DNA of 64,000 nt from positions 309,442,001 through 309,506,000 of the forward strand of contig OZ024740.1 of NCBI GenBank assembly GCA_964016885.1. Direction: 5' to 3'. The notes beneath the pieces were generated by a model. That model made no database searches. It was not told the origin of the DNA and saw only the letters and a list, made by a program, of their open reading frames with translations. The stretch is from Eledone cirrhosa (lineage: Eukaryota). Shown piece after piece: positions 680 to 63,064 of this stretch (position 1 is the stretch's first letter; each line of letters opens with the position of its first letter). Both the position numbers and the translations under genes were made by a program.

Positions 680-739
<60 letters not shown>

Positions 740-741
<2 letters not shown>

Positions 742-1385
742 GTTTACATATATATAAAGTCATAGATATATATGTGTTTTGCAGCGGGTCACGTTGTGGC
801 TCAATGAAGAATTAATATATTAAATAATCAGAGCTATATATCATAAAACATGTCTATAGAATCACTAGATAAAATATATACCGTTTCCTCTCCCAATTAG
901 CATAATTAACCATATTAAAAAATCAATTAGACCAAGCTCTAAGAATAAAGGCTTCTATGAAGAAATCTCCAACAAATAACCGAAAGCAGCCCCTTCGCGG
1001 CGGTTACGACGGAGTATTTATCGAACATTTCGACAGCATGTATAAATGGACCAGATATACAGTCAACTAAACATAATTAAGTGTAAAATAAACTTGGAAG
1101 AAATGTGTACATATTTATTTACCTCTACTATGGTTTCGTCCGTATTTTAAGACATCCGATAACAGGGGACATCCAGAGCTTCAGATTCATCAGGAGTTAT
1201 CTCAAATTTAGACAATTAATTTTCCAAAGTGATCGCGCCAAGAATACATTCAAAAATGGCTAAGAATCGTGACGTGGCAGCGGTCAAGTTAGAAAGGATG
1301 TGATTAGTTGCTTACGGTTGGTAGGTTTATTGCTAGAAAGCGCAGCCCAATACAGGAAACGGTATATATTTTATCTAGTGATTCT
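740..1385 (-). mobile_element. Older copy of the 673-nt hammerhead element family (degenerate ribozyme at 1122-1196)
   Basis: Similar to 13774-14473 but in permuted order. Minus strand reads CTC-CTGATGA-ATCTG...CGGAC-GAAAC-CATA-GTA-GAG. Confidence 0.75.
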
Positions 1386-1399
1386 ATAGACATGTTTTA

Positions 1400-1462
<63 letters not shown>

Positions 1463-10675: not shown

Positions 10676-10740
10676 ACTGCTATATATATTTCAGTGACAG
10701 CCATCTTTGGCTGTGACCTCTTCAGGCAGTCCGAATTAGT
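10676..10740 (-). ncRNA. Type-I hammerhead ribozyme motif
   Basis: ACTGC-CTGAAGA-GGTCACAGCCA-AAGA-TGGCTGTCACT-GAAA-TATATA-TA-GCAGT. Perfect stem I, long stem II, palindromic loop 3. The host element (about 10625-10845) is flanked by TA tracts. Confidence 0.85.
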
Positions 10741-12575: not shown

Positions 12576-13496
<921 letters not shown>

Positions 13497-13535
13497 ATAT
13501 ATATATATATATGGAAACTCTGCTTCGTAGAATCG

Positions 13536-13632
13536 AGACATATCTGAGGATCTTGCGATTTCAGAATCAGGTTTGATCATTGCATCGATCGTGCCTCGAG
13601 TTGGTCGCCAGAGAAATGATTGTAATATGTCT
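13536..13632 (+). ncRNA. Type-I hammerhead motif with extended stem II
   Basis: AGACATAT-CTGAGGA-TCTTGCGA...TCGCCAGA-GAAA-TGATTG-TA-ATATGTCT. Perfect 8-bp stem I; atypical U-A pair closing stem II. Confidence 0.7.
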
Positions 13633-13773
13633 AAAAAATATTATTCGTAGCACCACTGATTCTCCGTTTCTTATGTAATATTATACTCTGCTCTGTAAGA
13701 GCATTGAGTGCTCAAACGGCCTACAGCTTACGGACGCTTTAAGCATCCCACACCAATTATATATATATATATA

Positions 13774-14473
13774 TCATAAAGTATGTCCATAGAATCATTT
13801 CATAAAATATATACACCATTTCCTCTCCCAATTAGCATAATTAACCACATAAAAAATCAATTAGACCAGGCTATAAGGATAAAGGCTCCTATGAAGAAAT
13901 ATTTGATAAATAAACGACAGCAGCCTCTTCGCGCCCGATGCAATAGAATATTTACCCAACATTTCAACAGCATGTTGAAATCGACTAAATATACCGTCAA
14001 CCATACACAATTAGGTATAAATTTAAAGTTAGAAGAAATGCGTACACTCTTACCATGCTTATGTCCCTACCCTGGGGTTTCGTTCGCGTTTTGTGATATC
14101 CTATTAAGGATAAACTCTCGAGTTTCGAACTCATCAGGAGACAAACTCATAGGACAGGTAATTTTCCAAAGCGATCCCCGCCAGAAATAGATTCAAAAAT
14201 GGCTAAGAATCGTGACATGGCAGTGGTCAAGTTAGAAAGAATGTGATTAGTTGCTTACGGCGAGTGGGCTGGTTGCTAGAAAGCGCAGCCCAATATTTCC
14301 CAAATTGCATCTCAACCTAATGGGAGATTATTAAATATAAAGATTTACATATACACAAACTAAACAATGTCACAGATATATATGTGGCAACCATTCACGA
14401 TGTGGCTCAATGAAGAATTAATAAATTAAATAATCAGAGCAATATTTCATAAAGTATGTCCATAGAATCATTT
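13774..14473 (-). mobile_element. Terminally redundant 673-nt monomer element (27-bp direct repeats) in (TA)n
   Basis: TCATAAAGTATGTCCATAGAATCATTT occurs at 13774-13800 and 14447-14473. Circularly permuted relative to 740-1385. Confidence 0.85.
14062..14143 (-). ncRNA. Type-I hammerhead ribozyme motif
   Basis: TGTCTC-CTGATGA-GTTCG...CGAAC-GAAAC-CCCAGG-GTA-GGGACA. Canonical core, G-C closing stem II, GUA triplet. Confidence 0.85.
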
Positions 14474-14516
14474 GATATATATCTATATATATCTGTGTGT
14501 GTGTGTGCGTGTGCGT

Positions 14517-16211: not shown

Positions 16212-18901
16212 TTAAATACAGTTATACATCTGCTGAGACCAAACTTTTCCAGGACTACATTTCAGTGTAATATAATTATACCAATTGGAGCATTGAATGT
16301 ATTTCTTTGGATCCGGATGGGAAAAACGAGCTTTATATAAATCTCTAGTGCAGGGATTATTATTTAATGGTTCATCCCACGTCGGTTTATCGTTATACTT
16401 TCTACGGGTTACACCCGGAAGTTCACTTGTCCGTACACGATGTATAGAAGCACCGAATACGCAGTCCATTTCATGCTGGTTCCATACAGTTCCAGGAGAG
16501 CAGTTACGTAACACATACGAACCTGGTACAGTGCACTGGATAAATTTCCTTGGGTCTGAATGTGCAAAATAGCCCGATCCCGATTCTATTGCTTCTGCAG
16601 TACACATACTCTTGCCAGTGTTCATACCGCCGTGTTCTTTTTCGAAGATCGTGTGATGCGAATATCTATGTATGCAGGTTTGATTTGCTTGTGACCACAG
16701 GGTACCATTGTCACAAGATTTAACAAAATATGTTCCATGAGTCGTACATTGAACATAGTACTGGGGATCTGGGTGAGCAAAAAACATTACGTTGGCTGCA
16801 ATCTTTTCTCGAGTGCAAGGGTTTTTAATTTTATTAAGTAACGATGGATTATAAACTTGTATAGTTGCGGTTTTAACTGTAGATTTGACTTTAGGTGTGG
16901 TTGTAAGTCTGGCTGCAGTTCTATATGTGACTGTTTGTTCTTCACTTATACAAGTGAGATTTGCTTGTGACCATAAAGCTTTATAATGACATTCTTTTAC
17001 AACGTAAGATCCTGGGTGAGTACATTGTATGAACTTATTAGGATCAGGATGAGGGAAGAATTGACGATGTGTTTCTAAATTCTGTTTAGTGCAATAGGTT
17101 TCAAATGTATTTAATGAAGCTCGTTTGACTGTCCCATGCTTAGACGAATTCTTAAAGGAGATTATTTTTGTTGCCTTGGTAGTATGTTCCTTGGACATAT
17201 AACGACATGTGCGGTCAGGTGCAAACCATACAGCATCATTGCCACATCGCTGTACAAAATATTGTCCCTTTGTTGTGCATTGAATAAACATGTGTCGGTT
17301 AGGGTGAGGGAAAAGAAACTTATTACTGGCTATCGCTTCTTTCGTGCAAGGATTTCTGAAACCATGAGGTTTGGCGGTTTTAGGTGTTCCTCGATATACC
17401 GAGAAAGATCTAAGTGTTGTTGTGGTTGGAGTTTTTGTGGTAGTTGGAGTTTTTGTGGTGGTTGGAGTTGTTTGGGGTCCTGTAAATGTTGGTGTTATGC
17501 ACATCATATCTGGTTGAGACCAAAAAAATAATTTTGGACAGTTTCTTATTACAAAAGATCCTGGTCCCACACATTGAAAATACATAGTTGGATAGCGATG
17601 GGCAAAATATTTGAAGCCTGCAGCAATATTTTCTTTTGTACAGTAACTTCTGTGAAATGTATAGGCAGATCTATTAAACTTCACCACTGTCGTCATGACC
17701 ATTTTTTCAGTGTAGTGCTTCATTGCTTTTGTGCTGGGTTTATGTTTTCTTCTAGGGTAATGCGTAGATATTGGTTTGGTAGCTGCCACATAGACATTAG
17801 TAGAATAAGGTTTCCGTGTTGTTTTTGGCTTAAATAAGGTTACTCGGTTGGTGTAAAATTTACGTATTCCTTTATTTCTGTAAATATATTTAGACGTCAC
17901 ATACATAGTTTTGCTTTTTTTCTCGGTAGATGTTGCTATTGTAGATGTTTTCGAAGATGTGAACTTCGATGGTTGCTTTCTGCTTGGCAGAAATGCTGCA
18001 GTTCGGTAATGTCTAACTATTTTTGACGTTCTTGGAAAGAATGTTGTGCCATTCGGTTTTTCCTTCTTAGGAAGAGTGGGATATGTAACAGGTATACCGA
18101 CCGTTTTCTTTGGTATTTTCGACCAATATATTGTGGAGTTATAGATATTTGTTTGAACTTTTCTTGACGATAAATATTGGGTGGTTGGATAATAATCTTG
18201 TATACAAGTATCACCCTTCTTGGACCACGTTTTACCAGAATCGCAATGTCTTATGACATATATTTCTACACCTGTACATTGAACAAATTTGGTTGAGTCT
18301 GGATGAGAATAATAAAGTAGTTTAGCTTCTATAGCAGCTTTAGTGCAAAGGTGTTTAAAAATATTGAACAAAGGATTTATGGTAGTTTTATCAGAGTTGG
18401 CATGTAAAGTTGTCTTGAATATCAAACGTCTATACTTTAGACGTAAATGCTCTGATGTATTTAAACACTTTGTCTCATTCTGTAGCCAGCTATTTCCTGG
18501 AATACAATCTTTTATAATGAATGAACCAACATCTATACATTGTATGTATTTGGTATTATCTGCATGTGGAAAGTATAACCTTCCAATATCAAACGTTTCC
18601 TTCGTGCAAGGATTAACATAAGCATTTAAAACTGGCATTTGTATAGCTGGTGCCTGTTTTTTATCTTTTTCAGTTTTGGATATATTATCTGACCGATGAA
18701 CGCAGGTTAGTTTACTTTGGAACCAAAATGTACCGAGAGGGCAGTGTTTGACGTAATAATCTGATGACTTTAAGCAATGTATATACATCGTTGGGTTAGG
18801 ATGGGGTAAGGTTATTGCATGAACTCCATCAGTTCTCTCACGACAAATAGTCTTCAGATACTGTTTATACAGAAGATTATCTTTTGTATAAACTTCCGGG
18901 G
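16212..18901 (-). CDS. Terminal coding exon of a secreted multi-domain chitin-binding (CBM14/peritrophin-A-like) protein; nine Cys repeats plus Thr/Lys-rich linkers
   Basis: The 858-aa ORF (16212-18788) stays open 37 codons upstream (PEVYTKDNLLYKQYLKTIC...) to a phase-1 acceptor tttcaaatttcag|CC at 18902/18901. Nine repeats of C-x(11-15)-HP-D-x2-(F/Y)-x-QC-x10-C-x5-W-x7-C. TTPTTTKTPTTTKTPTTTT mucin-like linker. Confidence 0.9.
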
Positions 18902-19960
18902 CTGAAATTTGAAAGAAATAAAATATTAAGAATTTAATTACTGATAGCTAGAAGCAAAGACGACTTATGTATATTTACATACTTGACTAAAATATCTGGT
19001 CCAGATGTACAATATCCGACTTAATTAATTTCGTGCTGTTAATTTCGTCTTATACATTTTTGAGTGAACCAGGTAGCTCTGCTATCATATTGGAAAAGAG
19101 CTAAACATCTAGAGAGTTGCTTCCTCACCTGATCTGGGGGTGACTCCTATATTCGGGGGGGGGGGGGGGGTTGGAGTACTGCAGCACTTCTTCGCCTATA
19201 AGTGTTTAACCCAAGTGTTTTAAAAAGGAAATAAGACTATGGAAGTGAAGAATACTTATGATTGGAGTGAAGAAGACATCAGATTTGAAGGAAATGATTC
19301 ATACCCATATTCATATGCACATATAGAAGTTAGTAAGGTCAATCCAGTGAAGGTTAGATAACCTAAAGCAAATGAAGTGTTGCACCAAATAAAATGAAAA
19401 GTAAAAAGAAAAAGGAGTTATTGGTGGAAAAATAGTCTCAGATAATCGGTGATTCGATACACAGGTGAGATGATTGTCACACTAAATGTAGATAGTAAGA
19501 AGTATGTTCAGAGGAGAAAAAGCAGGAAAATTCTCCTTAGAAACAAATATAGAGTCAAAGGATCGTTGAGATATAGGTAGGTGGGAATCGAGAAAAAAGA
19601 AAAGGGGAAGGATCAAGCAACAATGCCAAAGGGAATTCACTGGAAGTATTTTACAATTATCCAAATGAGCTGTAGCATGAAAGGAGAAATGGCGGCTTGG
19701 TGTGTGATAAGGTCAACTTTGCAACATCCTGTATAATATATATAGTGATAATCTTCGAGACACTCCTATCCTACTAATGTATGAGATACCGAATCGACAG
19801 AACGTGAAGCAGAATTTGATCTAAGTGACCTTCCAATTAAAAGAATCTGGAACTTCATCAAAAGAGTACGATCAAAGAGTCCGCAAGGCTCGATCCTGGT
19901 GCCGTACAAAGATTACAAGAAGTGCACCATCAAACTACTTTTCATTCTTAGAAGAGCTTA

Positions 19961-20178
19961 AGGGCGGTGGATTAGCAGTATCGGTAGAGAGTCGGACACC
20001 ATGCTCTGCAACATAGAGTTACGGTCCTTTATGGTCTGAGTTGAAATCCTGTTGAGATTAACTTTGCCTTTCATCCTTACGGGGTCGATAAAATAAAGCA
20101 CCAGTAACGTACTGGGTTCGATTTAATCGACTTTCCCCTCTCCACAAATTACTGGCCTTGTGCCAATACTAGAAATCA
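19961..20178 (+). mobile_element. tRNA-derived SINE (major family, long variant)
   Basis: Same consensus; flanked by TCATTCTTAGAAGAGCTT direct repeats. Confidence 0.85.
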
Positions 20179-20762
20179 TTCTTAGAAGAGCTTGGAAAGA
20201 GAAAGTGATTAAGGATCGCTAGGCAAGAGATTTCAGGATAGCTCATGTCAACGATGGAGGAGAAACAGTTGTATAATGGATCACTTAACGATAGAGTTGA
20301 AGGAATTAGAATCCAGAAGATGACGGAAAGTAATATTCTAATAGGAGGTATATAATCCAGGTACAATTTCAAGCAGGTACAATGTATACAGTTTTCATTA
20401 TTCTCTAGAGTGCACTGCTCATTGATGTAGTACGAATTCTAGCTAACATGTGCCAAGACTATTGAACGGTAACGTAACATCTACATTCTCATGAGATGCT
20501 TCGTCCCTTCATAAGACGTCGATTACAGCACCTTCAGAAAATAAATATTTACCCCAAATCTCTCTTTGACCCGTAACTCCCGAGCGAGTCATAGGGATTA
20601 CGAAGTGACATACAGCTTTTCTTGGACACTTTTAAAACCTGGTGGAGCCCATCTCGTCTCCAAATTTTAATACAGCCGATTTCTTCCAGAAGAGAGAGAA
20701 TGATTTAGTGAAAGGGGGAGAGAGAGAGAAAGAGAGAGAGGGTGGTGAAGAGAGTGAGTGAG

Positions 20763-20819
<57 letters not shown>

Positions 20820-22063
20820 TAGAGAGAGTGTGATAGAGATTGAGTGAAAAAAAGATATAGAGAAAGAATCGATTCTAGTGCTGAACTAGTACTCCATCGA
20901 TCTCGATATAATGAAAGGCAAAGTTGACCTCGGCGCGATTTGAATTCTGAATTCAGGGAGCCACAACGAATGCCACAAAGTATTATATCCGGCGTTCTGA
21001 GGTCTCTGTGAGTTCGCCCCCTTTTCTCAGATACTTACAGTCTTATTTATATCTATGGTAGAAATGCTGTTATAAATTATCATTCTCTAAGGACCCAAAT
21101 GAAGTGGCAATAGCTAAAAATCACAGCTGACATTTTACTGCTATATTCTGGAGGTAACAACACTTAATATTGGAGGGGAATGGCTTCATTATTCTATATG
21201 AAGAAGGTGGTCTGGCTGAACCATTAGAGAGTTGGATGACATTCTATGCTCTAGTCTTCCCAATCTTTTACGTCCTGAGTTCAAATCCTGCCAAGGTTAG
21301 CTTTGTATTTCATACTTATGTGGTCGATAAGATAAAGTACCCTCCAAAACTAACCTTCTTGCTTGAATCAGAAAAAATTATTTTATACAAATGCAAACTT
21401 TTTGAAAATGGAAGTATGTCTACGTAAACGAAATATCTAAACAAATAGGACAGAATACACCAGAATACGCATAGGTTTACTTCAGCTGAATTGGCAAAAT
21501 CGGTAGATGAGGGACACTCTGCCTATTTTTAGAATTTAATAACATCCCATTATACTTTGGGTTCGAATCTTACCGAAATAAAGGTTTGCCTTTCATCCTT
21601 CTGGGATTGATAAAATGGGTGTCAGTCAAGAAGTGGTGCGGTACAGTTGAAATTTGGGACTTCGTGCTTGTGTTGGAAATAAATATTGTTATTATCTTTC
21701 AAAGTATTTATTTCTTAGACTGGTATAGTATTTATAATTTATGTGATATTAGAATGGGACATTATCCCGTTCAATCTTTCCACATAACAATGATGATATA
21801 CGTGAATGGAAATGACTCTAACCAGGTGTTAATTCTACATTGTGGTTTCGCCTCACTGAGAGTTAAGTTCTATGCTAATATATATATGTATATTTATATA
21901 TGTTCAAAATAGACACTCTCCACGAAAAATGGGAGTATGATATAATGGATTGAATCGTCTACAGTACTTGACTATCAATATATTTTATTTATATCGGTGG
22001 AGTTTAACTAGATGGCACAAGACATTCATTCGACACTCTAAAGATCTACACTTTTATTAGTAA

Positions 22064-22469
22064 CTAGACCACCCGTGACCCGTTGGGTCATGTTCACTTC
22101 AAAATATTAAAAAAAATTCATGTTCACTTAAAAATAATTTCTAAATAATTAATTGTTTCTACTTTAGGCACAAGGTCAGCAATTACCCAGTGCATTACTG
22201 GTACTTTATTTTATCGACCCCGTAAGGATGAAAGGCAAAGTCAACCTCAGCGGGATTTGAACTCAGATCTTAAATAATTAATATATACACAGACATGTAT
22301 ATAATGTGAAATGAAACTGGAAGGCCCATATATATACGTGTGTGTATGTAAATGTGTGTGTGTGTATATATACATACACACACACACATATGTATATATG
22401 TATGTATGTGTGTATGTATATATATATGTGGGTGTCTGTGATCTATATACACTGGTCATAGACACACAG

Positions 22470-22530
<61 letters not shown>

Positions 22531-22622
22531 ACACCACCACCAGCCCTCTCTCTCTCCTCCATTCTCCTTCTCAGTCTCCTCTCCTCACTCTGTCTCTCTT
22601 TCAATCTACTCTTTCACAACCA

Positions 22623-22693
<71 letters not shown>

Positions 22694-22899
22694 TCTCTCT
22701 CTCTCTCTTTCTGAAGGTACCTGGAAAGATCCCATATCTTGGGAACCGTGCTCCGATTTATACGAAACTTGTTTTATTCATTTGTATTCGTATTTCAGGG
22801 TCAACTTCCTTTCAAAGTATTTTCCCATTATGCGTCCATTTGGGTGTATTACATCAAAGACAAGCAATCAATCAATCGCAGAGTTTAATAATATATAGA
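22064..22899 (-). mobile_element. Non-autonomous Helitron in an intron of the chitin-binding gene, with nested SINE and microsatellites
   Basis: A|TCTATATATTATTAAA...(GATT)n 5' end; TGACCCAACGGGTCA hairpin and CTAG|T 3' end. Confidence 0.6.
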
Positions 22900-22942
22900 T
22901 ATCTGAAACAAAGACAAGAATAACGAAAATAGGAAAACTTAC

Positions 22943-23210
22943 TAAGTATTTCATCTTCATTTCGTGAATCAAAAGATTGCGAAATATATTTTCGCCAGAA
23001 ATGTTTATCTTGCAACGAATCTTCTGGAATTGATTCATTGAGTGATGAAAGGAAAAGAGACATTATTGCTCCAGAATACAATGGCTTGTCTAAGTCAGCA
23101 ATATTAATCGAATGCACATCTATATCGAACTTCTTTTCAAGCAACTTACACAGGTCACGCAAACTTTGTCGACAGGAAATTTTAACTGAACCGAGTTGAT
23201 CTATAGCAAC
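22943..23210 (-). CDS. Internal coding exon of the chitin-binding protein gene (VAIDQLGSVK...RNEDEIL)
   Basis: Long polypyrimidine tract ending cctaag|GTT (phase 0) and donor CTT A|GTAAGT (phase 1). The phase matches the 18901 acceptor (A|CC = Thr). Open frame of 268 nt. Confidence 0.8.
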
Positions 23211-24131
23211 CTTAGGAAAAGAAAAAAAAGAAAAGAAACAAAAATGTTCAAAAAATTGTACAAAAATATCAGAACAGCGAAGAAAATAACAAAATATAAA
23301 ACAAGGGAATATCGCATTTGTCACTTGAGCCTGTAAAGAATCAGAACGAAACGTCCCTTAATCATACCCCTTATTTATTTCCTTTCTGTGCTACCTGTCG
23401 GTGCCTTGAGACTTCTAGTAGCATAATAGCTTTATTGCTTCTATCAGAATAGGTCTTGAAACCTTCGTTCAATATTTCAATAGCACGGAATACTGATATC
23501 AGTCACACAGTGAACATCTTATATGACGTCACGTAATACAGTACGAGGGGGAATAGAAAGAGTGAGTGACTGAGTGAATGTGTGAGTGAAAGATAAAATA
23601 GACAAATAAAGAAAAAAAAATAGTAATGCATATTGGGAAAGTCGAAGACGAAAGTAACTCGAGGGTATTTGATCCCCAGAGCAAATAGTGTAAGGCAATC
23701 TATCGGAAGCTCTAAGGACAACCATTCGATTATTACACTTAACCGTCTTAAAAAGGAAAATATCACTTTAGATAACATAATCCTAGATAAGCAGAAAAAA
23801 CGAAATGGCCATCGCAAGAACCCATTTCATCATGCATCTGCTCAAACGGAGATTACATAGAGATTAACAACAATGAAAGACAAACAAGAAAAATAAGGCC
23901 AACAAAACGAAACAGAAAATCTACCATTAGAATACGAGGAGCAAACTATTTTCTACAGACGATTCATTTCTTTAAATTTTCATTGGGCTTCGTATATTAT
24001 TGAATTGAGTGAGATACATAAAATAACTTTATGAAGATTTATATCATAATCATAAAATCTGCATTTACACACTCACACGGCTTAACAAACACAAATGTTT
24101 CAGTGTGTGTGAGTGTATCGTTGTGTGCGTA

Positions 24132-24718
<587 letters not shown>

Positions 24719-24822
24719 GCATTTAGGGTGGCTCATCTTTTTAAGGATACGCGATTCAATTGATAAATGATGACAGATATCAAGCTAACTCTGTAAATTA
24801 AAAGACATGCTGTACTTGTTAC

Positions 24823-24984
24823 CTTAAAGGCAGATGTTAGTGATTTAGAGATTGCTCGCTTCCTCAATGTTGTACGGACGTTTTTCAAAGTTCTCAAAGT
24901 GCTGAAATCCGTTGATGGGGATTCTACAGCAATTACCAAACTTAAAACGCTTGCTAAGAGTCCTAATATTATCAAAACACCCAT
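24823..24984 (-). CDS. Candidate first coding exon B (signal peptide MGVLIILGLLASVLSLVIA..., 54 codons)
   Basis: ATG followed by a hydrophobic signal-like segment and an RKR basic cluster. Donor AAG|GTAAC is phase 0, compatible with the 23210 acceptor. Confidence 0.65.
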
Positions 24985-26524
24985 ATTGTTACGTAAGGTG
25001 AGACAATTTTCGAAAACAATCTAATAAATCAATAGCACCATTCTTAAGGAGCTCAATTAATTAACAAAAAAATTTTTTCTATTTGCCAGTTGTGAACACC
25101 GTTTTAACAAAATATTCGTGAGCAATAACATTTAGGTGATCCCAATAGCTTGAATTAATTGAGTAATTAATCCACCGATAATGTTCTCACACTTACCACA
25201 TTTAATTTCGACAATAAATCCTATATAGAGCATTTAATACACGTATGTCAAGCGCAAAATACATTTTTACACGGTATGAATCACCTGTTGGTAACCAGGA
25301 ACATGTAAATCATTCAAGCCCAACATCCATTTTGTTTTAGACATTTTGACGTTTCATTTACATCTTAATACATTCTATACATTCTGTTATCTATTCATTT
25401 AGATATTTCATCATTCCTATTCCAATTTCTAGATGATGTACAAATTATTCATGCATCCATTCACACATGTTACATATTTCTCTGTTAGATATTTTATAAA
25501 TAATTATTATCAGAAATAGTGATCCTGTTGGCCCAAACATGATATTTCTATCTATACTTGTTGAATTATTTATACTATTCATACTAATTCAAACTAAAAA
25601 ACAAACATTTAATATGCAAAATCTCAGGTATCTGGTATCTGGCTTTGAACTTTGATTTTGGTTTTTGGATCTTTAGGATGGGACATATAAATGAAATTTC
25701 TGTCTATCTAGCGACAGACCGGGTCTGCACCTGTCAACATATGTACATGCCTGATGACGCGATAATTGTCTGAGTCCAGCTGTGGGCAGAATGATCGTAA
25801 CTAAACAATGGTTAGTTAATAAACATATGTTGTTTTGATATCCTCGCTCGTTGATTTTGATATACTCTGCGTTACTACGCTACGATTCGTCTGATGGTAC
25901 TGGATTTCTGAACATATGACAACTACAGACTATATGTGTATTGGTGCTCTGCTGCGCACTATTTTATCTAGTAAACGACTGGATTGAATACTGAATCTGG
26001 TTTACACCCGGATTATTTTTCATAATCTAATAACCAGAATATAAAAAAATATATATTCCATTTTATAACACACTAAAATTAAACAGCAAAAAGATGTCAA
26101 CTAACTCGGGACAAACCTTAAGTATGTTCCAATGTTACTAACTGCGATTTGATTGTTGTACACTCTCCTTTACATCCAAACCTAAACATATGAGGTTTGT
26201 GACGATATAAAAAGATAAATTATTTGCGAGGCTGAATTTTCTCAAGCTCACTTGAAGACATAAAAATCTTTTCTTTTTCTGACTAAAATGGGAGAAAATC
26301 GATAGAAATTCTTTTAAAAATCTGTATGAGACAAACCATCAATTTTACTTAATTCGAGGTGTGTTGATAATATGCACTTCTTATCCTATTGAAAGAGACT
26401 TTGCACTCACATAAATTTAGTCCCCCTTGCTTCCCTTCCGTATTACAGAACTCATATCTATATAAAAAACTAATTATCGCAACTTGAGAAATGAATGACG
26501 ATGAAATAAATGGTCTTTACTTAC

Positions 26525-26752
26525 CCGCCATATACCGCCCATACCAGACTGAAATGGAACACCATCGTTACTTTGAATGGTAGCCAGTCTTCGGAGTAGA
26601 ATTTTATTTGGAAAAATTCCATTCGCGTCCAGTTGATCAACAACGTCACCAACGACATTTTTACCTGTAGCTCCAACTTCCTTGATTCCTTCGGGAAATT
26701 GTCCACTGCAAAATGGAATCAGTAAAAAATAGACACCTATCGCAAACTTCAT
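26525..26752 (-). CDS. Candidate first coding exon A (signal peptide MKFAIGVYFLLIPFCSG-Q..., 76 codons)
   Basis: ATG at 26752 in ACAATGA context, short signal-like N-terminus, consensus donor CGG|GTAAGT in phase 0, TATA-like box about 100 nt upstream. Confidence 0.7.
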
Positions 26753-31376: not shown

Positions 31377-31379
31377 CAC

Positions 31380-31622
31380 AAAAAAAAGAGAATCAGTGTT
31401 GCGACGGATGGAATTTATTGGACATATTACAATCGTTTCTCTGGCGACCAGCTCTAGGCACGATCGATGTGATGATCGAACTTGACTCTGAAATCGCAAG
31501 GTCCTCAGATACGTCTTGATCTACGAAGCAGATTTTCCAAGACGTATCTGAGGACCTTGCGATTTCAGAGTCAGGTTCGATCATCACACCGATCGTGCCT
31601 CGAGCTGGTCGCTAGAGAAACG

Positions 31623-31628
<6 letters not shown>
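31380..31628. mobile_element. Fold-back pair of hammerhead-bearing fragments (same family as 13513-13757)
   Basis: Inverted arms at about 31428-31518 and 31538-31628. Minus-strand hammerhead at 31421-31515; the plus-strand copy stops at ...GAAACGATTGTA and runs into (TA)n. Confidence 0.75.
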
Positions 31629-48925: not shown

Positions 48926-49108
48926 GGTGGATTGGCAGTATCGGTAGAGAGTCGGACGCCATGCTTTGCAGCAAAGAGTTACGATCCTTGCCATTCTGAG
49001 TTCAAATCCCGCCGAGGTTAACTTTGCCTTTCATCCTTACGGGTCGATAAAAGAAAATACCAGTAATACACTGGGATAATTGCTGGCCTTGTGCCAAAAG
49101 TAGAAACA
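48926..49108 (+). mobile_element. tRNA-derived SINE (major family)
   Basis: Same consensus; AATATTATCCTGAT direct repeats flank it. Confidence 0.85.
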
Positions 49109-49636
49109 AATATTATCCTGATTAAGTCGGTGATAGCAAATAAGACAGAAAAAGTGCCAGTAATCGCTTATTTATTTTAAATAAAATAGACTAATGGTAG
49201 TTCACTCACAAGCATGGTCACGAACGACGCATTAATACTCATATTAAATCGCATACACATATATATTCACATATACACATGGTGCCACAATCATAAACAA
49301 AAGTATGATCAATAATAGAGCTTGTTGCAAATAGTAGTTTGATATTCCTGATATGATGCCATGCAAAGTTAGAAGAAGGAACAATTAGGTATTGTGATCC
49401 CAGACACACTATGTTTGTGCATGTTTGATCATAAGTCTTCTCAATTTCAGTTGTGATAGGACTAAACTACAATACATAAAACATGTCCATATATATATCA
49501 GATGTGAGAAAAACCACAAACCCTCCATCGCAATTCTACTTTTGAAAAGCAGAACTGCGAAACCGGTAAAGGAACTAAATAAATATATATTTTTATAAAA
49601 AAAGACTCCAGTTGCATTTTCGATTTCATCTTTTTT

Positions 49637-49670
<34 letters not shown>

Positions 49671-49676
<6 letters not shown>

Positions 49677-50580
49677 TAATATGTAAGTGATGAAACACAG
49701 ATACCAACACATCTGTATATATATTGCAAAAGAAAAATTTAGCCAGATTGAAGTATACTAATTATTATACTACAGTTTGTCCATATCGATTTAGAATAAT
49801 AAATCAACGGAGACGAACTGTATTGCCAAAAGGCCGTGATGTTTAGACACATTTAAATTTCAAAATCAAACCTGTTCCGTAGATAAGTTTAGACTTTAAG
49901 ATCCAATTTGTATACTTCAATCTGGCTAAATTTTTCTTTTGCAATATATATACAGATGTGTTGGTATCTGTGTTTCATCACTTACATATTAATTTATACA
50001 CTGCTCAGGGGATATTTTTCCTCATTCGAGCTGATTCCATTGTAAAAGAATTCATTACCTTATTAATTTTAACTGCTCCTAGTTTGAGCTGCAAACCGCC
50101 TCATATATACGACTGTTATTTCTAGCAGTACGGTTATGAGACTAGTTAGATACTGTAAAGCCATGTGCGTCACGCAGTCTTTTAAATTATTTAGAAGTGA
50201 AGCATATCAATTTGTCTCTGGATGTTTACTGAGGAGAGCGGGACATGATATTCCTACACTTATTTAACTCGAAACATATTTGGATCTTAAAGTCTAAACT
50301 TATCTACGGAACAGGTTTGATTTTGAAATTTAAATGTGTCTAAACATCACGGCCTTTTGGCAATACAGTTCGTCTCCGTTGATTTATTATTTTAAATCGA
50401 TATGGACAAACTGTAGTATAATAATTAGTATACTTCAATCTGGCTAAATTTTTCTTTTGCAATATATATACAGATGTGTTGGTATCTGTGTTTCATCACT
50501 TACATATTAATTTATACACTGCTCAGGGGATATTTTTCCTCATTCGAGCTGATTCCATTGTAAAAGAATTCATTACCTTA

Positions 50581-50585
<5 letters not shown>
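49671..50585 (+). mobile_element. Terminally redundant 518-nt monomer (158-bp direct repeats) preceded by an inverted segment of about 235 bp, in (TA)n
   Basis: 49910-50067 equals 50428-50585. 49671-49906 is the reverse complement of about 50280-50515. Confidence 0.85.
50221..50348 (+). ncRNA. Type-I hammerhead ribozyme motif with full stem III and large loop 3
   Basis: GATGTTTA-CTGAGGA-GAG...CTC-GAAA-CATATTT-(50 nt)-AAATGTG-TC-TAAACATC. Perfect 8-bp stem I; GUC triplet. Confidence 0.85.
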
Positions 50586-50671
<86 letters not shown>

Positions 50672-50672
<1 letters not shown>

Positions 50673-50993
50673 AAAAAATCGAAAAGAATGACTTCACTTG
50701 TAGTTATAAACAATTTGATTTAATTTTATATTATGATTTGGTAGATCTACCAAATAATAATATAAAATTAAATCAAATTGTTTAGAACTACAAGTGAAGT
50801 CATTCTTTTCCCTTTTTTTAAAAATACCTAACTGTACAAAGGATTTCACACATTCTCCAATGTCCTAATAACTTATTTTAGTTATTATCGCTCCAACGTG
50901 AGGTATATGATTTTTAATGCGATGAAATACCCATAATCGTTTGGTAAATCACTGATGAGGGACTGCAACCAGCAGTATTCTTCTCACCCATAT

Positions 50994-50998
<5 letters not shown>
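50672..50998. mobile_element. TA-flanked element beginning with a palindrome of about 145 bp (centre near 50745)
   Basis: GAAAAGAATGACTTCACTTGTAGTT...TTTGGTAGATCTACCAAA...AACTACAAGTGAAGTCATTCTTTTC. An isolated CTGATGAG lies near the right end. Confidence 0.6.
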
Positions 50999-51039
<41 letters not shown>

Positions 51040-51156
51040 TCTTTTTTTGAATTGAGTTTGAATTATCTTACGTTAACTATTTTCCCATTTTGACGCTATA
51101 GTCACTTATATATTATGAAATACTATGTGCTTCTTGCTCATAATAACTGCTATACT

Positions 51157-51197
<41 letters not shown>

Positions 51198-51787
51198 GAA
51201 GCGGCAGATATAAACAAGGATATAAGCTTATTTAATGAGATATGCAACACTTATATTTATATGTTTTATTTATCTATTTTGTAGTTGTTAATATTTATAT
51301 AGAGAAATAACATACCGTTTAGTCAACAATGATATATCAATGACAACAGGAGAGTGACAGTATACTCAGTGCTACACAGCGTCAATACACTCAAACCGCA
51401 ATATCATCTGCTTCTCTGTTTCTCCTTAGTCTTCATTAACATCTCAAAGGAATGGTTATGTTGTTACTTAGATCACATTAAATTATTCCGTTTTACAGTT
51501 CCGTGAACATAAACATTGTTTTGTCGGAGAATTGCTACTTAGAACGATGAACTTATCAGTTAGCTAAATGTTGGCTGAATCATTTCCCAAGTATTTAATA
51601 AATCAGACGACCGTGTATTTTAAAATTTCATTGACGTAATTCGAATGTTTAAATGGTAAATTAATCATATAATAGGACTTGTCTATGGTGGTAACTAATT
51701 GATTAAAAACACCTAGAGCTACTAAAGGAAATTTATAAGTGAGGGAGATACTTAACAAATTAATTTAAGTTTCAAGCCCACCTCATC

Positions 51788-51970
51788 ATAATTGTTTCTA
51801 CTTTTGGAACAAGGCCAGCAATTATCCCAGTGCATTACTGGTACTTTATTTTATCGACCCCGTAAGGATGAAAGGCAAAGTCAACCTCGGCGGGATTTGA
51901 ACTCAGATCCTAAAGGGCCGTAACTCTATGCTGCAAAGCATGGCGTCCGACCCTCTACCGATACTGCCAA
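51788..51970 (-). mobile_element. tRNA-derived SINE (major family); further partial copies at about 22150, 27250, 52061 and 58360
   Basis: Same consensus. Confidence 0.85.
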
Positions 51971-52292
51971 GCCCACCTAATCATAATGTGGGTAACTTAC
52001 AATGAATTCTTTGCTGAGAGATAGGGAAAGGTTTATTGTCGTTTAGAAACATCTCATTGAAATAATTGTTTCTACTTTAGGCACAAGGCCAGCAATTACC
52101 CAGTGCATTACTGGTAAATGTGTGCTTAATTTTAACATCTTTTGTTGTTGTAAATCTGATATAAAGCAGCAATGCCACCAAATGTGCCGGAGGATCTTAA
52201 TTCTATCCACATAGTAGCACACTCTCCTTGCTGCTGCTGTTACTACTACTACTACTACTACTGCTGCTGCTGCTCTGCTGCTGCTGCTGCTG

Positions 52293-55770: not shown

Positions 55771-56865
55771 ATCATTAATCCTTTTGATCAGAGTTGAAAT
55801 GGCGCTAAATGACAGCAAACAATTCTTTCTAGATAAAATAATTATTTCCTCTTACATCTATTTATGTCTTACATTTCATCAGTGGCATTTAGATTTCAAT
55901 TTTCTGAATTCGCTAATTATATTTATTATGTTATTTCTGTTTTTTAGTTGTGAATGAAATAAATAGAAAAACAAGTTTTAATATAATGTCTCACGTTTTA
56001 ATAATGACTATATGAGGAAAAACCGAGAATTTAATTCTGACTAGCTACAAGTGATTATGTATGTATGTATGTATGTATGTATGTATGTATGTATGTATGT
56101 ATGTATGTATGTATGTATGTATGTATGTATGTATGTATGTATGTATGTATGTATCTATGTACAAAGGGCGGTATGTATCTATGTACAAAGAACTCATAAG
56201 AGTCAACGACCAGCCAAAATTGTGTAAATATGTATATGCACATGTACATAGGTATGTATATGTGTATATACATGGGTGCATGTGTATGTATATGCGCGGG
56301 GACATAGAACTAGTCGGGCTGGACACCCGATCGCGCGGTTAAACCACCGGGAGTGAAGGACCCCCAGCCTTTGTCAGGGTATTCTTCTAGGAGAAGACAA
56401 CTCAGGAAACTGGGATAACACCGATATAAAACCTGCGGCTCAGTAGTTACCGATGATGTTGATCTTTTCTTCTTTTCGGGTTATAGCTACTGTCGCTCAG
56501 AGAGTGGGATTGGCTCAGTGCACAGTCTTTCCTCACTTTAAAAAATATCTTCACGCACAGGCATTGCACGATAGAATTAATTAATAATTATTAATAATGG
56601 TATATCGTGCAATGGCCATACTCGATGACGAGGGGCAGCCATCATTATGTATGTATGTATGTATGTATGTATGTATGTATGTATGTATGTATGTATGTAT
56701 GTATGTATGTATGTATGTATGTATGTATGTATGTATGTCGGCTCACTTTTGAGAGCTACTGGTAACATGTAACCCAGTGCAACCTGTCGCATGGTCGGGT
56801 CGTCGGCTACTAACCCCCCCCTCAAGTTTAATTCGTGAGGAGGGTGATTATATATATATATATAT

Positions 56866-57180
56866 AAAAAAAAGAAATAGGATTTCGCTTCAAGAAGCGA
56901 AATCCTATTTCTTTTTTATTATAAGTTGAGCCAACTTTTGCAGCTTCATATGCAAATGAGATTAATCACCTCATTTACACAGACGAGAATAGTATATTCT
57001 CAGCTGTCTTCTAGTCCAGCAGTCGCAAGTGGTGGGCGGGACCGTCCTGACGAAGGCCAGTTAAGCCTGAAATTCATAGACGGTTGTGCCCCTTGCTTCT
57101 GCTGGACATCACCAGTGTTTGCATAGCTACGGCTTCCTAAAACTGTATTTTTTTGGAGATACAAAATATTCATACATAAT
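56866..57180 (+). mobile_element. Second copy of the 335-nt family with a 24-bp snap-back hairpin at its 5' end
   Basis: Similar to 24258-24570 (TAAGTTGAGCCAACTT..CAGCTTCAT.TGCAAAT.AGATTAATCA). Hairpin 56868-56891 / 56894-56917; TA tracts on both sides. Confidence 0.8.
57040..57085 (+). ncRNA. Minimal type-I hammerhead ribozyme motif
   Basis: ACCGTC-CTGACGA-AGGC-CAGTTAA-GCCT-GAAA-TTCA-TA-GACGGT. Confidence 0.85.
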
Positions 57181-57610: not shown

Positions 57611-57656
57611 TAGTCGAAATACTTTCGTCACATATTCCGTGACCTCTTCAGTGACT
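57611..57656 (-). ncRNA. Hammerhead-like motif, partly degenerate
   Basis: AGTCA-CTGAAGA-GGTCAC-GGAATAT-GTGAC-GAAA-GTATT-TC-GACT. Same CTGAAGAGGTCAC start as 10676-10740; register imperfections at stems I and II. Confidence 0.5.
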
Positions 57657-58989: not shown

Positions 58990-59468
58990 GTATGTGTGAA
59001 GGCGTACTTGTTATGGTGTTAGGCTTAACATTCTACACACACACATATATATATATATATATCCAATAATTTCCCCGAAAAAGATTTTCTTTTCATGATA
59101 CAGGAAGAAGAAACAACACCAAGCGTTCGGCCGGCCCTCTGGTATCACGAAACGAAAGTCTTTTTGGGGTTATTATTGAATTTTTCCAAATTTAAAGGTT
59201 TCTTAGGCCCTTTCAATGTTTATTTTAGGTTTTGCGCTCTGAAGAGCTCAGGTTATCTTAACTGATAGTCCTCAGTGAAATACGTATTACGGAGTTTTAA
59301 ATAAACCTGAATCAACTGAATAAGGCCTCCGATCTTTTATTAATATATAATGCTCCGACTTGCACCATTTATACAGGTCGTTGAGCGGTTCTTTTTATCT
59401 GCTTCACAACCGACAGACCCTAATGTGGTCCGCACATCTCTGTTCGATTAACCCCATACTCTAATATA

Positions 59469-59501
<33 letters not shown>

Positions 59502-60377: not shown

Positions 60378-61371
60378 ATGTATGCCATTTCCACCTCGCA
60401 CACTGTCGTGAGTGCCACGCCCACTAAGAAAAGTGGTGGAGGGAAGGTAGGAGTACAAAGCTTGCAACCTTCCCCCCTCGCATTATCGAAAAACGTTGAA
60501 AATAATGAAACCACGAAACCAAACCCGGTAAATAATACCAGCACCAACAACAAGAACAATGACAATAACACCACAACCAACAACTGCAACAATAGCAACA
60601 CCAAGGAAAACATGAACAATATTACCAACAGTGACAACAACAGCAGCAACAAAAAAGACAACAACACCAAACGACGTTCGCACAGACTGTAAAATAAAAC
60701 GAACTATACACGCCAATAGACATAACAAATGCTAAACAACTACTACAAGACGCAAAACAATTCGTGACTTTTGGCGAAAACGGTGCTTTTAGCATCAATT
60801 CTCCACAGGAATTACGTAGAGAGGCTGTCCTGAAAACCACAGTTTTCAGGACAATATCGAACGAAACAAAAAACCAGCTCAATTATCACAAAATGAAATT
60901 GTGCTGGTTCTAAAAGATGCAATCAAGGACATAGCCTTCATACAAAAAGGTAAACTGTTTGGTAGTATTTCGGTGCTAATGAACAACCAGTCAACAGCAC
61001 AAAAGTACTCGGTATCACCCATTGTGTCCCCCCGCTTCACCTTTTTCCCCACATACAGGGGAAAAAGGACACAAAGAATAAAAATAATGAGTATCACACC
61101 AAATGTAAATATTTGGTGGATACTATGTGGAATCATTGACTTTGATGAAGACAAGATAATTTCAATAGGAAAGTCCTCCGGAGGTGTATTTGGTGGGACC
61201 AGCGTAGAAGTTCTGGTGCAAATGAGCCCAGAACGAATAGCGAATATCCCACAACGCGTGCCTCTGGACGGGCTAACTTATATAAACATTTCAGTGGAGG
61301 GAGCGGCCGTCATGTTACCACTGCTTAAGCAGAGGTCACCTGAGGGCTGCCTGTCCTCAATTAACGAGTAA
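60378..61371 (+). pseudogene. Tx1-like ORF1 remnant with Asn/Thr-rich N-terminus and zinc knuckle
   Basis: Broken frames 60378-60692 and 60901-61371. A shifted frame at about 61301-61354 reads RPSCYHCLSRGHLRAAC (C-x2-C-x4-H-x4-C). Confidence 0.7.
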
Positions 61372-61432
61372 AAAAAAAAGGCTCTTCTGCCAACCCCGAA
61401 CACAACAACACAACCATCGGTACCTGGATGCG

Positions 61433-63064
61433 GTGTTCGCGGCGGCAGGCTTCGGACCCGTTTTCAGAGGCTGGATTGCTGCAATGCACAGCAGCAACAC
61501 CTGCTCGAGGGTCAAGGTGAGCGGCTACCTCTCGGAGCCGTTCCAAATCACGCGATCCATCCGACAGGGATGCCCTCTCTCTTCCCTCCTGTATGTGCTG
61601 GTTCTCGAGCCACTACTGCGGAAGCTGGAGCTGTTGCAGGGCATCCCCTTGGAACCGGGATTGCGGAAAGCGGTGTCGGCCTACGCTGATGACGTGACAG
61701 CAATGGTCTCGTGCGCCTCGGAAATCGGGCAGATCGGCACCTTACTGGAGGAATATGAAAGGTTTACAGGAGCCAAGCTGAACCGGAACAAGTCCGTCGG
61801 TTTGCAACTCGGAACGTGGAGAGACAAACCGATGCCCTCCGACGGCATCGTCGGACGCTGGACGGAGGGACCGGTGAAGCTGCTCGGGGTCTGGTTCAGA
61901 CCGGACCTCCAGGTGGAGAAAAACTGGGACGAGGTAACGGGCAAGGTGTTTGCACTCGCCAAGAAGTGGGCCGAGTGCAAACTATCCCTGAAAGGTCGAG
62001 CGGAGGTGGCGAACGCTTATATAGCGTCCGTCATCTACTACCGCTTGACCGTCGTGCCTTGCCCAGAGAAAACACTCGCCAAAATGGAGCGCGCGCTCTT
62101 CCGATTTCTTTGGAAGAAGCGGGCTCCTTTGGTGAGAAGATCCATCTGCTGTCAACACCCTTCGAACGGAGGGCTGGGCATGCCGTGGCTGACGATGCGT
62201 AGACACGCATTAAGGCTACGGCACCTCCAGGTATTCCTCACCGGTGAGCCGGTGTGGGCCCTGTTTGTGAGGCGAGCCTTTCCGAGACTCGTCTCACTCA
62301 CCGAGCTGCAATCATGGGTCAAGCAAAGACCGAGAAAAGTGGGCGACTGGCACATTGAATGTGCCCAGGCGCTCACGGCCCTCTGGCAAGCGGATCCGGC
62401 AATCAGTGGAGACTCAACCTCAACATTCTATAGAGGGTTGGTGCGCAGTAAGTGCGACGACGCTCTCGGAGAGGCTCTGGGCATGGAGGTAGATGAGCTG
62501 GCCAGTCTGTTCGGTAGGACGTTTAGCCCGGGACCGATGGACAACTTCCAAAAGTCCCTGGCTTGGCAATGTTACCGAGGAGCTCTACCCGTTCGGGACA
62601 AGCTCTACAGGCACGGGCGCCCGGGTAGGGACTCCTCAAAGAAGATCTGTCCGAGATGCGTGCGTGACGAGGAAACTGTCGCACACGCATTCGTACACTG
62701 CCCGGGCGTTGCTGACCTGTGGGGCTATGTGGAACGACTACTGTCGCGGGTGGGACCAATCCGGTTGACCACCGAGAACACTGTCACGATCAAACCGCCT
62801 CCCCCTTTCAAAAACGAACGAGAGGCGGTTTCCCTCTGTGTGATAGCTATGGCGAAAGAAGTTGTATGGTGGACAAGGTTGAAAGGGCTGAGGTCAGACA
62901 CCTTTCTCTCCGGCCAACAACTGGTCTTTTTTTTCAAGTACCACTTTAGAAGAAGGATCAGAATAGAGAGAGAGGTGCTCTACCCCAGCAAGTTTTATGA
63001 AAGATGGGTGAAAGTAGCGAGAATGGCCCGAGTGAATGGGCCTTCTCTCTATATCAGCCTGTAG
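61433..63064 (+). pseudogene. Tx1-like ORF2 fragment: reverse transcriptase C-terminal half plus C-terminal CCHC domain
   Basis: RSIRQGCPLS, AYADDV, LNRNKS, GGLGMP, CPRC..EETVAHAFVHC. Starts abruptly at (D)HRYL; no endonuclease domain present. Confidence 0.9.

Follow-up and report, generated by a model that had tools for sequence, protein, structure and literature searches.

A TA-flanked, non-coding hammerhead insertion in Eledone cirrhosa with the layout of a Penelope-like element insertion

The 64-kb stretch of Eledone cirrhosa DNA analysed here (the window) carries on its minus strand a three-exon gene for a chitin-binding (CBM_14) repeat protein (16212-26752), whose 911-residue frame (16212-18947, minus strand) had only two matches at E ≤ 1e-20, namely chitin-binding proteins of Octopus bimaculoides (66%) and Argonauta hians (58%). 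Outside this gene, an insertion at 49670-50585 lies between two TA runs and consists of a forward body preceded by an inverted arm. This layout is real in the sequence, and its parts are:

49640..49673, no strand: left (TA)17 run, the target microsatellite, any target duplication being hidden within it
49670..49906, minus strand: inverted, 5′-truncated second copy (reverse complement of 50280-50516)
49905..49909, no strand: head-to-head junction made up either of a 2-nt microhomology and a mismatched base or of 3 untemplated bases
49910..50427, plus strand: one 518-nt unit (permuted), 33% GC, non-coding
49910..50067, plus strand: upstream copy of a 158-bp direct repeat, pseudo-LTR-like, 5′-truncated 88 nt past the virtual upstream cut site
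50428..50585, plus strand: downstream copy of the 158-bp direct repeat
50517..50585, plus strand: tail of 67-73 nt on the forward body, missing from the inverted arm
50349..50585, plus strand: structured 3′ region past the ribozyme (z −4.9, 0/100 shuffles)
50584..50669, no strand: right (AT)43 run

The inverted arm is identical to 50280-50516 at 236 of 237 positions, the sole difference being 49794/50392; its first 4 bases are common to the left TA run, and only the 3′ half of the ribozyme is aboard. The forward body (49910-50585) measures 676 bp, or 1.31 units, and its direct repeat is exact across 49910-50067 and 50428-50585 at a spacing of 518 bp, a 163-bp version taking in the junction mismatch at 49909. 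A preliminary description of this DNA, which had noted about 1.3 TA-flanked units in tandem plus a nearly identical inverted piece of about 235 bp, was thus borne out. It had also called the unit a 518-nt hammerhead monomer; one type I hammerhead with a GUC ending at C50340 was indeed found, whereas the status of monomer would follow from the repeat spacing only. Neither BLAST nor nhmmer revealed another copy of the unit or of its ribozyme in the 64-kb window, and the insertion sequence has no poly(A) tail. Folding predicted the unit at 49910-50427 to be structured on the plus strand (z −4.5; 0/60 shuffles), with −127 kcal/mol vs −104 kcal/mol on the minus strand.

Pfam searches of 49412-50670 gave no match at E ≤ 1 for any of 12 frames, the six-frame translation of the insertion was interrupted by stops, and inspection of 43.8-53.2 kb revealed no convincing coding frame. 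Having no reading frame, the insertion is therefore not an autonomous Penelope-like element (PLE). Neither a PLE reverse transcriptase nor a GIY-YIG domain was found by Pfam in the 66 of 121 short frames scanned in ribozyme-bearing regions, where the few weak matches fell below the cut-off. A sigma-70 promoter scan, a model unsuited to an animal host, gave 10 vs 9.4 in shuffles. Right after the right TA run comes a 152-bp palindrome (95%) followed by 176 bp up to the next TA run (50670-50997), and a lone hammerhead-like half core (50952) lies inside this segment; reading the left flank and this palindromic neighbour as one interrupted element gave no real alignment. A dispersed repeat of about 190 bp (72-97% identity), probably a SINE, occupies 48926-49116, 51785-51988 and over ten further sites.

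The ribozyme comprises the following parts:

50221..50348, plus strand: type I hammerhead (stem I 50221-50228/50341-50348, core 50229-50235, stem II 50236-50270, GAAA 50271-50274)
50274..50339, plus strand: helix III, a 28-pair imperfect hairpin with a tetraloop and one C-A mismatch
50340..50340, plus strand: C17 of GUC, with the predicted cut 3′ of this base

A hammerhead is described by the core CUGANGA, GAAA and NUH in type I order. These were found at 50229-50235, 50271-50274 and, as GUC, at 50338-50340, together with a stem I of 8 Watson-Crick pairs and a weak stem II of 3+4 pairs. A descriptor with stem I ≥8, stem II ≥3 and stem III ≥8 gave 1 match in the window, and 60 block-shuffled windows gave none. 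Stem III had been described beforehand as 8 bp with a 50-nt loop, which was wrong: its pairs (12+8+6+2, 6 G-U among them) make up a 28-pair hairpin with a 4-nt loop, predicted at −20.5 kcal/mol on the plus strand (z −5.4, 0/200 shuffles as stable) vs −5.2 kcal/mol on the minus strand. The remark that this ribozyme is unlike the others in the window did hold, the helix III segments of the other five motifs from a broader scan (2004, 10725, 13544, 14137 and 57047) being 6-10 nt. A-to-I editing was considered as the origin of the G-U pairs in this single copy; their excess (6 vs 1 A-C) was not significant (P 0.06).

A 141-nt ribozyme region was more stable than 198 of 200 shuffles on the plus strand (z −3.0), vs z −0.3 on the minus strand. 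Stems I and III were well predicted in local folding, and the active fold lay 3.4 kcal/mol above the minimum-energy fold (1.7-7.6 for the other five hammerheads in the window); the predicted pairing of stem II was 0, and that of stem I was 0.03-0.59 in longer contexts. When the whole-insertion RNA was folded, all three ribozyme stems dropped to 0, because the 3′ half of the ribozyme is taken up in long base pairing with the inverted arm. No loop 1-loop 2 contact was recognisable in the 50221-50348 hammerhead. Searches with Rfam gave no hammerhead at the gathering score in the window and none at E ≤ 10 in 49500-51200, and this score was not reached by any of the window's other hammerhead motifs either; 12 weak Rfam matches in 49500-51200 were hairpin or AT-rich chance matches.

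On its own, the isolated ribozyme would be likely to cleave as a monomer; this is no rarity, monomer cleavage being stated for most type I hammerheads of invertebrates (PMC7761336). The insertion holds a single complete ribozyme and should therefore be unable to cut out a monomer; with this one ribozyme, and with a read-through RNA that would form a 237-bp duplex, the locus is predicted to be a very doubtful source of monomers. Hammerheads of fungal and protist PLEs, such as that of Serpula lacrymans, are likewise of type I with a large helix III and likewise have no recognisable tertiary contact; those of the Serpula type were shown to cleave as monomers, whereas animal PLE ribozymes are of the dimer type (PMC4209133). 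The fungal and protist elements are endonuclease-less, telomere-associated PLEs, unlike the insertion, which is an animal, interstitial and non-coding unit (PMC4209133).

Among animal PLEs, the Hydra clade is (TA)n-targeting and hammerhead-bearing, with one complete family in O. bimaculoides (PMC8557442), and both its (TA)n target and the position of its hammerhead near the 3′ end are found in the insertion. Visual comparison with the ribozyme of the coral element Hydra-1_Amil showed matching 8-nt stem I arms and a matching G7 core, the rough chance being 0.004 for the arm alone. Helix III of Hydra ribozymes has 3-4 pairs and a 1-3-nt loop in 26 of 26 rows of the published ribozyme table (PMC8557442), vs 28 pairs here. 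The present ribozyme resembles a Hydra-type hammerhead in which the short palindromic helix III was extended by a long hairpin, and with the long helix III gained, a dimer would therefore no longer be needed; such a helix III is new in an animal Hydra-like ribozyme. The insertion also differs from Hydra elements in being non-coding and in ending farther past the cut than most of the Hydra consensus sequences compared.

Both copies cross the cut site at C50340, and neither begins nor ends there: the 3′ ends are located 172-176 nt (inverted arm) and 243-245 nt (forward body) past it, the former falling 67-73 nt short of the latter. The template must therefore have been uncut or re-ligated and longer than one unit, and we infer that it was a tandem transcript or a circle. 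This accords with an in vitro study in which PLE ribozyme mutants were still inserted, with uncut RNA as the main substrate; the PLE protein nicked and extended both strands, cut AT-rich DNA and initiated internally on the RNA, at two sites that set the tail (PMC11167929).

Examination of the two 3′ ends revealed what is new in this insertion, namely that both stop 5-10 nt before one signal, a TATTAAT followed by a GCTC..GAGC hairpin, which is present twice per unit:

49987..50031, plus strand: end signal 1, upstream copy (TATTAAT, 9 nt, GCTC-hairpin-GAGC; closing pairs P 0.96-0.97)
50061..50089, plus strand: end signal 2 (TATTAAT, 7 nt, GCTC-loop-GAGC; P 0.79-0.83)
50505..50549, plus strand: end signal 1, downstream copy, with the 3′ end of the inverted arm (50512-50516) 5-9 nt before the hairpin

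All end-signal hairpins of the element had a predicted P of 0.79-0.99. The 3′ end of the forward body maps 8-10 nt 5′ of the hairpin of end signal 2, which is why this hairpin is absent at the insertion's own end; it is kept only in the upstream repeat, in line with internal initiation. Exactly two TATTAAT are present in the unit, and both 3′ ends fall at them (shuffle mean 0.25; at least two in 44 of 2000 shuffles). Local alignment of signal 1 with signal 2 scored 34, equalled by 2 of 3940 random stretches, so the similarity alone is modest and the position matters; in an alignment of eight end-signal regions the motif was not in register. Scanning both strands of the 64 kb gave the composite signal four times: three are in the insertion and one is at 59338, where a TA-flanked element (59063-59474) has the full composite signal and a decayed hammerhead core at 59239. 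The GCTC..GAGC hairpin is also seen past the TA-abutting ends of two other families in the window and, by eye, close to one end of Hydra-1_Ajap, Hydra-2_Ajap and Hydra-2_Amil, three of the six published Hydra consensus sequences compared (PMC8557442); Hydra-1_Crog has hairpin variants, and it is not seen in Hydra-1_Amil or Hydra-1_Obim, the latter having no closed GCTC..GAGC hairpin.

A scripted test covered all sites in which one repeat copy stops at a TA run while another goes on (n = 19). A strict GCTC..GAGC starting ≤20 nt past the end was found at 5 of the 19 sites, 3 of them from the insertion at 49670-50585; outside it, 2 of 16 sites (842 and 13675) had the strict hairpin vs a background of 0.55% (binomial P 0.003), and 14, the 1462-2190 insertion included, had none, some of these being 5′ ends or unrelated repeats. 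The insertion, family A (842) and the Hydra sequences had already been seen when the hairpin motif was set, so that only site 13675 is independent. Judged from the sequence, the GCTC hairpin beyond both ends may be a candidate start signal for copying. No earlier description of the insertion's family or of the hairpin signal was found in the open-licence literature, nor among the matches listed for hammerheads in octopus.

Three other TA-flanked insertions in the window (739-1401, 1462-2190 and 31377-31626), each with a hammerhead core, have an inverted arm and a one-sided extension (about 103, 87 and 53 nt, respectively), so that inversion plus tail is ordinary here; their arms are 90-100% alike, which argues that the layout is biological and recurrent in the window. 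Only the insertion at 49670-50585 has the full direct repeat plus the inversion at near-perfect identity.

Other elements in the window were as follows. The TA-flanked insertion at 1462-2190 has a 211-bp inverted arm (96%), an 87-nt tail and a hammerhead at 2004 whose core is mutated in the inverted arm. Another hammerhead family, with a period of about 673 bp, has two minus-strand copies (739-1401 and 13775-14487; 79%), one of which stops at the short end while the other runs on for about 103 nt; a GCTC..GAGC hairpin stands where this tail begins. A hammerhead with a 62-nt stem II characterises the family at 31377-31628 and 13512-13757, the extension in 31377-31626 being 53 nt; the right arm of the palindromic 31377-31628 copy stops ≤2 nt from the predicted cut site, and a cleaved RNA end may have been the template there. 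The TA-flanked element at 12679-13495, which is very young, has a direct repeat of 224 bp that is perfect and spaced at 593 bp; no hammerhead was found in it, and its minus strand has 12 nt in common with end signal 2 of the insertion at 49670-50585. Two copies (76%) at 24214-24473 and 56849-57178 have a short-stem hammerhead (24412 and 57047) and a 50-bp palindrome at the start, and more hammerhead-like cores with a G-C-rich stem II are located at 10681-10725 and near 57651, both on the minus strand. A LINE remnant on the plus strand (60820-63064) has a 592-residue frame with part of a reverse transcriptase and a zf-RVT domain.

PLE insertions are described as having partial tandems, an adjacent 5′-truncated inverted copy and a one-sided 30-40-bp tail (PMC8557442), a footprint also in print in PMC8969392, and a layout of two direct copies and one inverted copy has been reported around non-PLE cargo, a host gene moved in trans (PMC3846280). 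The insertion has the partial tandem with pseudo-LTRs and the adjacent head-to-head, 5′-truncated inverted copy, and Pfam matched none of its 12 frames; the earlier proposal of a Penelope integration footprint on a non-coding unit therefore agrees with PMC8557442 and PMC3846280, and the mechanism proposed is probably right, yet largely known. Endonuclease-containing PLEs (PMC8557442; Pen2a_Av and the NRPS cargo, PMC3846280) have the same direct plus inverted layout with a one-sided tail, the same 5′ truncation and a type I hammerhead near the 3′ end. The insertion differs from them in having no reading frame, a period of 518 bp instead of 2-4 kb and a tail of about 70 nt (67-73 nt) instead of 30-40, bounded by two copies of one signal.

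Similar features are shared with metazoan non-LTR retrozymes (PMC7229834; bioRxiv 10.64898/2026.07.22.740005), which are also non-coding, below 50% GC and self-paired, with one type I hammerhead per unit and a head-to-tail period, and which have been proposed to depend on PLEs, although their mobilisation mechanism is not yet settled according to the preprint. The unit of 518 nt falls within the 51-972 bp range of the preprint but exceeds the 170-400 nt of invertebrate retrozyme circles, and with 1.3 units and one ribozyme the insertion falls outside the two-ribozyme rule for an 'active' retrozyme (bioRxiv 10.64898/2026.07.22.740005). A word search of these two sources found no description of inverted copies. 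Non-autonomous Chlamys elements such as MRC1, presumed to be moved by PLEs, are likewise non-coding with pseudo-LTRs and head-to-tail copies; unlike the insertion, they belong to green algae, mostly have no hammerhead and use (CA)n or (C)n targets (PMC8557442).

We consider it probable that the insertion is young and that a PLE which targets (TA)n, the Hydra clade being its likeliest home, supplied the protein that copied the non-autonomous 518-nt hammerhead unit in trans. Taken separately, mobilisation by a PLE is highly probable, and the chances that the partner belonged to the Hydra clade are about even. The insertion works like a PLE-mobilised non-LTR retrozyme, and this copy is probably a dead end. 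Recently active PLE families have been reported in O. vulgaris (PMC13282606). By this route, a source elsewhere (a tandem or an RNA circle) would have given a template of more than one unit, uncut or re-ligated at C50340; a PLE protein with reverse transcriptase and GIY-YIG domains would have nicked both strands of the TA run; two cDNAs would have been initiated internally on the RNA, each 5-10 nt short of a hairpin, hairpin 2 for the one of 676 nt and hairpin 1 for the one of about 235 nt; and the two truncated cDNAs would have been joined head to head via the 2-nt microhomology.

The same mechanism could have been carried out by another PLE clade (Neptune, Penelope/Poseidon or a still-active Naiad), the likeness to Hydra being due to shared features or chance. 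Microsatellite targets have been linked to Neptune and Naiad too, three Octopus species have Naiads (PMC8557442), and no extended similarity between the 3′ end of Hydra-1_Obim and the insertion was seen by eye. However, Naiads are described as having no canonical hammerheads and as long-inactive remnants in cephalopods (PMC8557442), and the matches in stem I and in the end hairpin are to the Hydra sequences, those that were compared; we regard such a partner as rather unlikely.

Less likely still, the insertion is what remains of an individual autonomous PLE after an internal deletion, with neither a family of its own nor an RNA circle; the 158-bp repeats would then be its pseudo-LTRs and the 360 bp between them leftover 5′ and 3′ untranslated sequence. 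Such an origin would fit the single copy in the window, the match of Xenopus retrozymes to PLE pseudo-LTRs (bioRxiv 10.64898/2026.07.22.740005) and the start of the unit right at the end signal, as in Hydra-1_Ajap. Nevertheless, no coding remnant was found, and the near-perfect copies and staggered ends show that the deleted form itself retrotransposed, so that a deletion accounts for the origin rather than the mechanism.

Twin priming yields adjacent segments with little overlap plus a 3′ tail. A SINE-like unit moved by a LINE (L1/Tx1, RTE, CR1 or Dong-R4) and inverted through L1-type twin priming is very improbable, as the arms overlap by at least 89 bp, no poly(A) is present and both ends are at one internal signal, even though there is microhomology at the junction, a LINE reverse-transcriptase remnant lies at 61286-63064, and such LINEs were recently active in O. 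vulgaris (PMC13282606). A fold-back chimera between long TA runs during assembly or library preparation, or a DNA-level template switch at a TA fragile site, is just as improbable. Either would agree with the 99.6-100% identity of the copies, and assemblies are known to have trouble with TA runs and with the tandem/inverted structures of PLEs (PMC8557442), but they would hardly agree with the one substitution between the arms, the 141 nt between the inner arms (no simple fold-back) or the older insertions with diverged arms (90-96%) of the same layout, and neither event explains ends at a repeated RNA hairpin signal.

With a PLE acting in trans as the preferred reading, the link between retrozymes and PLEs, which in print rests on shared ribozymes, co-occurrence and pseudo-LTR similarity, gains junction-level evidence on a non-coding unit, in which the RNA that served as template ran unbroken through the cut site. 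The layout and monomer cleavage are already known, and the repeated end signal is the more useful novelty: it is a short candidate cis-signal for internal initiation by PLEs and could be mutated in the existing type of in vitro assay. Tentatively, Hydra-clade proteins may place their internal start sites by a conserved RNA signal just past the copied region (an AT-rich motif, 5-10 nt and GCTC-hairpin-GAGC), and because the unit carries the signal twice, one integration would have used both, giving the staggered tail and the inversion. If so, the long helix III would have made a dimer-dependent ribozyme monomer-competent, and many mutually unrelated non-coding units with ribozymes would exploit this signal as parasites in octopus genomes.
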